From IMG/VR virus record IMGVR_UViG_2534681675_000023, positions 1-29,757 of that record: DNA of 29,757 nucleotides. The stretch is one strand, 5' to 3'. The notes below the pieces were generated by a model. The model was not told the origin of the DNA. It was given only the letters and a program-made list of their open reading frames with translations, and did not search any database. The stretch's first letter is position 1. Every line of letters starts with the position of its first letter. Of this stretch, positions 17,643-18,698 are shown piece after piece. The DNA comes from a virus (Duplodnaviria > Heunggongvirae > Uroviricota > Caudoviricetes). Position numbers and translations under genes: made by a program.

Positions 17643-17669
17643 AAAACCCGCGACCGAGCGGGTTTTTTA
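17643..17669 (+). terminator. tR'-like rho-independent terminator
   Basis: AAACCCGC-GACCGA-GCGGGTTT followed by TTTTAT; about 50 nt downstream of the PR'-like start. Confidence 0.7.
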
Positions 17670-17810
17670 TCCCCCCAAAAAATGGCATAGACATTAAACG
17701 TGATGACGATTGTGCCAATACTTTCTCCATCAATGACGCCCCTTGACTGCATGGAATCCAATTTGTTATGTAATATGTGTTGATATTTTTGAGTTGTTAA
17801 TGGTGTTACT

Positions 17811-18524
17811 ATGAATGACAGTGCTCTGCTCAGAAACTCTTCACTTTTTGTTGCTTATATGGGCTGTCTAGGATGGGGAAGCGCTTATTTCTATGGATGG
17901 GGTACTTCATTTTACTATGGCTTTCCATGGTGGGTTGTCGGGGCTGGTGTCGATGATGTTGCACGAAGTTTGTTTTATGCTGTGACAGTTATCGTTATAT
18001 TCCTTATTGGATGGGGAGTTGGTATTGTTTTCTTTTTGGGCATAAAACAAAAGCGCAATATACAAAATTTGAGTTTTATCCGGCTTTTTCTCGCGATATT
18101 GCTGCTTTTTATTCCACCTGTTCTGGAGTTTTCGGTAATTCATCAGCATGTTGAGCCAGATGTACTGATTTTCTGCATTCTTGCTGCCTTTACAATCACG
18201 CTTTTTGTCAGGTCTGGAAGAAGACTTGTTTCAGTCAAATGTTTTTCGGAAATGTCTTTTATTCGCCATCACCGAATTGAGTTCATGATGGCTGGGTTTA
18301 TGATTTATTTCTGGGCATTCTCTCTTATTGCCGGTTGGTACAAACCACAGTTTAAGAGGGAATATCAGGCGATCCACTATGAGAATGTATGGTATTACAT
18401 TATTGCGCGTTATGATGATCGTCTGGTGTTATCGAAATCATACAGGAGTGGGGGTAAGAAATTCGTTATATTTAATAGCGGAAATATTAATGATTTTGAA
18501 ATTAATACTATCAGAGTGCGTTAA
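17811..18524 (+). CDS. Multi-pass membrane protein (moron at the post-Q position)
   Basis: 237-aa ORF in AT-rich DNA; about 4 predicted TM helices plus a C-terminal soluble tail; candidate own promoter (TTGACT at 17743-17748). Confidence 0.75.
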   Translation: MNDSALLRNSSLFVAYMGCLGWGSAYFYGWGTSFYYGFPWWVVGAGVDDVARSLFYAVTVIVIFLIGWGVGIVFFLGIKQKRNIQNLSFIRLFLAILLLFIPPVLEFSVIHQHVEPDVLIFCILAAFTITLFVRSGRRLVSVKCFSEMSFIRHHRIEFMMAGFMIYFWAFSLIAGWYKPQFKREYQAIHYENVWYYIIARYDDRLVLSKSYRSGGKKFVIFNSGNINDFEINTIRVR

Positions 18525-18698
18525 AATTTCTTGAGTAATGAAGATTTTTACTGCCCGGCATTGAGCGGTTTTTTTATGCCAGAAAAATGGTGTGGTACAT
18601 AAAATGTGCTGGTGGTTATTAATACCGGTCTTTCAGCTTGCTGGCTTTTTCGACAAGAGTTATTGGTATGTCACGTTAACCAATAAAGAGAAAAAGAC

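Follow-up and report, generated by a model that had tools for sequence, protein, structure and literature searches.

A gene for a 237-aa inner-membrane protein lies between two copies of the late terminator tR' in the window analysed here, a 29,757-nt stretch of an Escherichia coli lambdoid prophage (positions 1 to 29,757 of IMG/VR record IMGVR_UViG_2534681675_000023). The arrangement consists of a membrane-gene module (tR', ~45 nt, a sigma-70-like promoter element and the gene) directly ahead of a second module made up of tR', a Chi site, a winged helix-turn-helix (wHTH) gene and a methylase gene. Each module found after the late antiterminator gene Q is headed by its own tR'; therefore, two alternative modules have been stacked in tandem. 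A pair of complete post-Q modules explains the repeat better than an insertion with target duplication would. Taken as a whole, the locus is probably best explained as an accessory cassette in the post-Q cargo region, with stacked modules and an envelope protein that serves the host. The original prediction had read this DNA as a membrane-protein moron (an add-on gene) acquired by recombination at the terminator. Its observation was confirmed, its evolutionary reading was largely right and its interpretation overall was partly supported.

Two tR'-led modules in tandem

The tandem and its immediate surroundings comprise the following features (window coordinates, strand, description).

16532-16894, +, RusA gene
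16885-17556, +, late antiterminator gene Q of the PF06323 type (Pfam Phage_antiter_Q, 3.6e-89; PHROG 304; RefSeq annotation of the identical region, with the start of Q at 16891)
17564-17592, +, candidate late promoter pR' (TTGCAA, 17 nt, TATATT; promoter scan; region conserved in relatives of the same Q type, alignment A1)
17596-17667, +, putative short pR'-to-tR' leader RNA, IsrJ/IsrK-like (sub-threshold full-length Rfam matches)
17643-17669, +, tR' copy 1, an intact intrinsic terminator (-14.2 kcal/mol, z -3.6)
17670-17712, +, post-terminator segment of copy 1 (alignments A1 and A7)
17743-17772, +, candidate promoter of the membrane gene (element conserved in E. coli copies)
17811-18524, +, gene for the 237-aa inner-membrane protein, STM1630/PF27470 'TfpB'/PHROG 1521 family
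17871-17918, +, tandem 24-nt repeat inside the membrane gene (repeat search; conserved in alignments A2 and A4; predicted local distance difference test (pLDDT) ~90)
18550-18576, +, tR' copy 2, a decayed terminator (-5.1 kcal/mol, z -0.17)
18577-18615, +, post-terminator segment of copy 2, with Chi GCTGGTGG at its end (18608-18615, +)
18699-18896, +, 65-aa winged-helix (TrmB-like) gene, first gene of the second post-Q module (PHROG 331, 1.4e-37; weak Pfam TrmB match)
18883-18905, +, intrinsic terminator-like hairpin overlapping the end of the wHTH gene (terminator scan; -8.9 kcal/mol)
19047-20132, +, N6/N4 DNA methyltransferase gene, second gene of the second post-Q module (Pfam N6_N4_Mtase, 7.3e-43; PADLOC MTase_II)

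The sequences GAGCGGGTTTTTTATCC... (from 17656, within copy 1) and GAGCGGTTTTTTTATGCC... (from 18563, within copy 2) were located within 1-2 nt of where a recurring tR'-like segment had been predicted. A repeat search gave an ungapped match of 74% identity over 34 nt (17647-17680 versus 18554-18587). Gapped local alignment of 17643-17712 with 18550-18620 scored 35, a value reached by none of 2000 dinucleotide shuffles (13.4 ± 2.25, maximum 28); the similarity is thus above the chance level that the original prediction had named as a possible objection. Across the whole window and both strands, the best non-self match of copy 1 was copy 2. The second-best match fell in the cos neighbourhood (GACCTAGCGGGTTTTCGCTAT), which we regard as coincidence; a lambda-type cohesive-end sequence, GGGCGGCGACCT, is present at 27031-27042, upstream of the terminase small-subunit gene.

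The hairpin of copy 1 (AAAACCCGC-GACCGA-GCGGGTTTT) is followed by a run of six T residues, and none of 200 shuffles folded as well. This GC-rich hairpin with its T6 run, 75 nt past the -10 of the pR' candidate and behind an IsrJ-like leader, qualifies as tR'. Copy 2 reads ACTGC-CCGGCATTGA-GCGGT, then T7, and retains a residual 5-bp stem with a 10-nt loop. Its fold was equalled or bettered by 78 of 200 shuffles, which is short of a tR' hairpin, and the proposal that the second copy had lost its stem was therefore correct.

Two alignments (A1 and A6) with related phages, each of which has one tR' region, showed independently that the copies are homologous. In a nine-sequence alignment (A1), copy 2 matched this region column by column, through the hairpin and the ~45 nt up to Chi, while copy 1 shared the same columns and then diverged into other sequence. 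Judged by these alignments, copy 2 is orthologous to the lone tR' found in relatives with an empty site. That the copies are instead unrelated terminators followed by AT-rich spacers, with no recombination at the terminator, might be argued from their modest ungapped identity, most of which lies in the GC stem and T run, but is effectively refuted by an alignment score above all shuffles, a similarity that extends ~35 nt past the T run, the column-by-column match of both copies to the single tR' region of six related phages and the independent BLAST breakpoints on both hairpins.

In copy 2, Chi (GCTGGTGG, +) lies ~40 nt past the tR' T run, and it occupies the equivalent position in six related modules (L001 3046, L002 3007, L003 3304, L007 3104, L008 3102 and L021 3298). 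In membrane-gene modules this position has drifted to GATGACGA or GCTGGCTG, copy 1 of the window reading GATGACGA. A Chi site beside the module boundary, in the orientation that acts on RecBCD coming in from cos, could promote recombination at the terminator. The window as a whole holds 11 Chi sites compared with 0.92 expected, including a second nearby site at 18924-18931.

Empty-site relatives and module boundaries

Comparison with prophages that lack the membrane gene, which the original prediction had proposed, identified three relatives (L006 of serotype O145, L007 and L008) with a common hokD-DUF968-RusA-Q backbone, in which Q and one tR' are followed directly by the wHTH gene with nothing between. 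The methylase gene comes after the wHTH gene in L006 and L007. The direct succession of tR' and wHTH gene was also found in L001 and L002, and the second module (tR', Chi, wHTH, methylase) follows Q alone in many relatives. An artificial empty-site query, in which Q through the T run of copy 1 was joined to the sequence past the T run of copy 2, gave single-piece full-length matches in E. coli chromosomes, with 414 records covering at least 80% of the junction. In genomes where a copy-1-like hairpin is fused to the wHTH module, matches began at query positions 545-562.

Searches against phages placed the boundaries at the same two points. Stx2 phages and phiP27 matched solely from window position 18563 onward. 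Phages with a related Q matched only to 17668, and homology of the Q module ended at 17668-17674. The mosaic breakpoints on both sides are therefore located at terminator hairpins.

The membrane-gene module could be delimited in the same way. Across six prophage arrangements (A7), the homologous block consisted of the hairpin, the post-terminator segment, a TTGAC(T/G)...TTTGTTATG element and the membrane gene, and sequence 5' of the hairpin was non-homologous. At least three kinds of Q precede the module in these arrangements:

Window and L020: same Q type; in L020 the gene is followed by tRNAs and a holin
L021: 273-aa antiterminator
L023 (O111): lambda-length Q
L009 (O157:H7) and phage 434: Q82-like Q

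In Yersinia enterocolitica (L016), the family gene directly follows a Q of a different Pfam family, PF06530. On its right side, the cassette ends ~17 nt past the stop codon, near 18541 and ~8 nt ahead of copy 2 (A6). The same tandem occurs in L021, with the same copy 2 in a slightly more decayed state (A6), and because of this shared decayed copy we conclude that stacking occurred once and then spread.

The tandem most likely originated by an illegitimate join between the end of a membrane-gene module and a point a few bases upstream of the tR' of another phage. The shared terminator would then have served as a homologous linker, and ordinary homologous exchange would later have moved the tandem among phages. 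With the upstream terminator stopping transcription from pR', the downstream terminator would be redundant and would decay. Of the proposed moron acquisition by recombination at the terminator, the add-on nature of the gene and the breakpoints at the hairpins thus stand, whereas a private acquisition does not, the membrane-gene module being widespread. The locus is an unusually clear case of how lambdoid cargo regions are built, in which terminator-led modules are swapped or stacked and the redundant copy decays. In phiP27 (L002 1652-2977), Q is followed by a GIY-YIG nuclease gene and then by a strong hairpin that resembles tR' (-17.7 kcal/mol). The nuclease gene thus sits in the slot that the membrane gene takes in the window, which suggests that the site just upstream of the hairpin has been used repeatedly for cargo.

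The stretch 17400-19100 was 100% identical to three complete chromosomes and was at least 80% covered in 178 complete genomes, and about this number carry the full tandem. The window was 99.8-99.99% identical, across aligned regions, to a near-identical strain annotated in RefSeq, where the genes onward from the methylase are a hypothetical gene, TerB, DUF3927, two holins, a GH108 endolysin, Bor and terminase. No tRNA genes were found in 17000-22000. Relative to strain MB07081, the window carries two insertions, an insertion sequence (IS) of the IS3 family at 8322-9631 (HTH_Tnp_1 and rve open reading frames (ORFs)) and an IS21-family element at 23257-25379 (Mu-transposase-like IstA and IstB), the latter directly past the endolysin gene. 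Because of these two insertions the prophage may be defective, possibly in lysis.

The membrane-protein family, its expression and its role

As predicted, the gene between the copies is AT-rich (GC content 0.389, compared with 0.484 for Q, 0.494 for the methylase gene and 0.47 for the window) and its 237-aa product is a multi-pass membrane protein, with four clear hydrophobic segments and an aromatic, glycine-rich N-terminal helix. An AlphaFold2 model computed with distant homologues in the alignment (pLDDT 79.5, predicted template modelling score 0.74) contained a long N-terminal helix (residues 10-36) in a conserved block with the highest model confidence, hydrophobic helices at 47-78, 89-111, 116-138 and 155-181, and a five-stranded C-terminal beta domain at 184-235 (~55 residues). 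The conserved N-terminal block, AY..GWG.AY.YGWG...YYG.PWW...ARSL, and the beta domain were present in alignments A2 and A4 as well as in the model. Within this block, the 24-nt tandem repeat encodes GWGSAYFY and GWGTSFYY, and the block therefore appears derived from an internal duplication. Two basic loops (79-90 and 134-156) and an acidic loop (113-117) suggest, by the positive-inside rule, a cytoplasmic N-terminus and a periplasmic C-terminal domain. No significant fold similarity to solved or viral structures was detected, and a profile search of PDB sequences gave no match.

The family is already catalogued, common and uncharacterised, and its cassette arrangement is typical of lambdoid mosaicism. 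The protein matched PHROG 1521 (1.4e-85, residues 17-237), and all 104 homologues examined for it, including proteins 94-98% identical, had a precomputed match to PF27470 ('TfpB'); ~60 of the 104 were full length. No family was matched in the NCBIfam and PADLOC libraries or in a Pfam copy without PF27470. A few RefSeq records name the protein 'STM1630 family protein'. A Moraxella bovis ORF in the pilin inversion locus bears the same name, TfpB, and may be the source of the Pfam name. A literature search on PF27470, TfpB/Moraxella, phage 434/LpxR, PHROG 1521 and RefSeq accessions returned nothing relevant. Pairwise dN/dS (the ratio of nonsynonymous to synonymous substitution rates) was 0.12-0.17 in unsaturated pairs; this is therefore a real gene under purifying selection. 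In a sensitive DNA search, 1197 of the 5426 complete E. coli genomes gave a match, 460 of them with at least 80% gene coverage; few uncharacterised prophage genes of E. coli are as common.

In all prophage copies examined, the gene came first after Q and tR', upstream of the lysis cassette, and so opened the cargo region in which other phages carry Shiga toxin. Decayed prophages have kept it as well. Phages 434 and 2B8 encode a 55.7% identical protein at the same place, after a Q82-like Q and a terminator, and O157:H7 shares the arrangement of 434. Outside prophages, the Salmonella homologue STM1630 (48% identical) is chromosomal, between steB and sseJ, and a published STM1630 primer (PMC6785131 supplement) encodes the same N-terminus as protein P0069. 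The family gene lies directly beside lpxR (lipid A deacylase) in Citrobacter rodentium (L015 3863-5717), 870 nt from the heat-labile toxin genes eltAB on the enterotoxigenic E. coli (ETEC) plasmid p14EC029d (L011 2357-4713) and among IS elements on a second plasmid. In UTI89 and ATCC 25922 the copy is a pseudogene that adjoins a phage-type tRNA-Arg and the iro locus, and in Avibacterium and Neisseria arctica the family member is a single-gene island among housekeeping genes. In 434 (L004 1166-4217) and O157, the genes lpxR and Q neighbour the membrane gene. Downstream, the loci of C. rodentium and Salmonella have an alcohol dehydrogenase, methyl-accepting chemotaxis protein and LysR gene in common, and both loci look like remnants of such a prophage region. 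No conserved partner gene was found beside a family member in the contexts examined.

An exhaustive profile search of 1.84 billion representatives returned only 71 clusters (50% identity). Distant full-length members came from Neisseria, Avibacterium, Gallibacterium, Pasteurella, Actinobacillus, Mannheimia, Haemophilus ducreyi, Klebsiella electrica and Mangrovibacter, and all taxa found belong to animal-associated Enterobacterales, Pasteurellaceae and Neisseriaceae. A second, word-indexed search with a broad alignment again gave mostly enterobacterial proteins, and a contig scan with very strict patterns gave six loci.

Expression of the gene may be under dual control. The own promoter suggested in the original prediction does exist as a conserved candidate element, with a -35 of TTGACT (17743-17748), an extended -10 of TG-T-TATGTA (17764-17772) and an 18-nt spacer. 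It is kept in the window, L021, L020, L023, L009/434 and the ETEC plasmid copies, and its flanks vary. The CII-binding site annotated ahead of the gene in 434 has no conserved counterpart in the window. In a lysogen, the membrane gene would be transcribed from this candidate promoter and, because copy 2 is weak, transcription would probably continue into the wHTH gene, up to the hairpin at 18883. Once the prophage is induced, polymerase modified by Q would pass tR' copy 1 and the membrane gene would be the first and most strongly expressed late gene. The 72-nt leader (17596-17667) aligned end to end with two Rfam models at sub-threshold scores (isrJ, 23.4 bits against a gathering threshold of 37; isrK, 17.8 against 50), and its first 14 nt were identical to the isrJ consensus. 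From its sequence, it fits a short 6S-like pR'-to-tR' RNA with late transcription starting near 17596.

At low certainty, we favour the reading that the protein is a lysogenic-conversion envelope protein, kept for the benefit of the bacterium in its animal host and with no part in phage lysis. The gene is intact in an IS-disrupted prophage, on plasmids and as a Salmonella chromosomal gene, all of which we count in favour of host benefit. STM1630 is co-regulated with genes of Salmonella pathogenicity island 2 (SPI-2) and PhoP-type genes (PMC2639726), and is expressed in macrophages from its own promoter; text S1 of PMC6785131 reports attenuation in transposon screens carried out in calves and chickens. 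The virulence-locus neighbours and animal-associated taxa point to a host role at least as strongly as to phage defence, and because the family is confined to animal-associated bacteria we rank host conversion above exclusion or abortive infection, these above a late or lysis function, and a pilin-accessory function last.

Several observations weigh against this explanation of the locus. Its functional part rests on context, and the neighbouring virulence genes may reflect shared prophage ancestry. Clean STM1630 mutants had no macrophage phenotype, and STM1630 hypermotility was listed among effects possibly due to polar cassettes. The candidate promoter was not called by a strict consensus scan. 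The mapped STM1630 promoter, located by a published oligo, lies ~220 nt upstream of the STM1630 ATG, away from the element that aligns with the window, and therefore does not validate the candidate. The cassette has no good terminator of its own, the next credible hairpin being that at 18883, past the wHTH gene, and is therefore not a textbook moron. Finally, the closest empty-site relatives are only ~81% identical in Q, so the order of events (insertion or deletion) is deduced from module logic rather than from isogenic pairs.

Exclusion of other phages is the main alternative to a host-serving role. A single-gene superinfection-exclusion or abortive-infection factor, which the original prediction had suggested, would be low in lysogens and massively produced late, and would block the DNA entry of incoming phages or collapse the membrane on infection. 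Many lambdoid accessory membrane proteins are exclusion proteins, for which P22 SieA, HK97 gp15 and T4 Imm provide examples. The gene is a prophage accessory gene with its own candidate promoter and stands alone with no partner, and its product is small, has several membrane passes and carries a basic beta domain that may be periplasmic. One distant homologue adjoins an AAA ATPase island beside icd: in Klebsiella electrica-like contigs (L027/L028 1176-4741), the family member lies beside an AAA_23/AAA_21 ATPase gene and a small ORF, adjoining icd. As icd is a known prophage integration site, this locus may be a defence island. However, the protein matched no PADLOC model and its PHROG function label is unknown, and neither sequence nor structure searches found homology to described defence proteins, including known exclusion proteins, or structural similarity to solved or viral proteins. 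Copies also persist in the core genome or in islands, next to loci for effectors and toxins or as single genes in housekeeping surroundings, and the family is restricted to animal-associated taxa. We therefore regard exclusion as a possible but doubtful function, if the least doubtful of the alternatives.

A broader proposal, which we put forward only tentatively, is that the family represents an unrecognised autonomous inner-membrane effector that occupies the toxin slot under dual control and either excludes phages at DNA entry or remodels the envelope so that the bacterium survives in its animal host. Such a protein would act alone, without a conserved partner gene. If this were true, roughly one-fifth of E. 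coli genomes, O157:H7, the copy adjacent to heat-labile toxin and STM1630 would reflect a common, overlooked conversion function. The membrane gene is a worthwhile experimental target, and the stacked-module anatomy is a neat illustration in its own right.

A late-operon role in the lytic cycle (lysis timing, antiholin-like control or blocking re-adsorption of progeny to lysing cells) appears improbable. In all prophage arrangements examined, the gene comes first past Q and tR' and precedes the lysis cassette, a position that would suit such a role, with strong Q read-through expected. However, the gene is absent from relatives with the same backbone architecture (L006, L007, L008), and copies carried by plasmids, chromosomal islands and an IS-disrupted prophage are intact and evolve under purifying selection. 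The gene is therefore not a conserved lysis component; had it been one, this would have counted against the reading of the original prediction. It also has its own conserved promoter-like element and showed no similarity to holins, antiholins or spanins in Pfam and PHROG scans, and in the window ~3.2 kb of other cargo lies between it and the holins.

The Pfam name and a similar plan (~240 aa, N-terminal helices and a C-terminal beta domain; PMC11841053) might suggest an accessory protein of type IV pilins, such as TfpY, TfpZ or FimB. This is highly improbable, given that no pilin gene lies beside a family member in any of 15 contexts examined, that TfpY-like proteins combine three membrane helices with a large periplasmic domain (PMC11841053), compared with five helices and a 55-residue domain here, and that none of the 20 name-checked clusters (71 in total) came from Pseudomonas, Acinetobacter or Dichelobacter.

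Comparison with known systems

The closest described counterparts are the 'putative membrane protein' CPT_434_68 of phage 434 and STM1630, to which the protein shows full-length homology with the same length and predicted architecture. The surroundings differ. In 434 and O157, the gene is followed by a DUF3927/TciB gene, whereas in the window it is followed by the decayed tR' and the wHTH-methylase module. STM1630 is a chromosomal gene between effector genes with its promoter placed elsewhere, in contrast to the post-Q prophage gene of the window.

Like the lambdoid morons (Hendrix/Juhala; HK97 gp15, lambda bor and lom), the cassette adds a gene between elements that sit side by side in related phages, and it has deviant base composition, its own candidate promoter and a product that is likely beneficial to the lysogen. 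Unlike morons, it travels with tR' as a module and, because the gene lies inside the late transcription unit, it is also driven by Q.

The leader upstream resembles IsrJ and IsrK of Salmonella (RF01393 and RF01394), matching both models over its full length, but differs from them in that its scores fall below the gathering thresholds and only the 5' end and terminator are conserved. This resemblance suggests that these 'island sRNAs' (small RNAs) may be 6S-like late leader RNAs of lambdoid prophages.

Finally, the cassette occupies the same region as the post-Q cargo of Stx phages (stx1/stx2 in 933W, H-19B and phiP27) and, by analogy, would follow the same logic of an own promoter combined with Q-dependent read-through. 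The wHTH-methylase module of the window is common to phiP27 and many Stx2 phages (89-94% identity). The predicted stx-type position was thus right as regards the post-Q cargo region but not the exact slot: in phiP27, stx lies past the methylase and tRNAs, whereas in the window the membrane gene takes the first slot after tR', upstream of the methylase, and toxin is absent.

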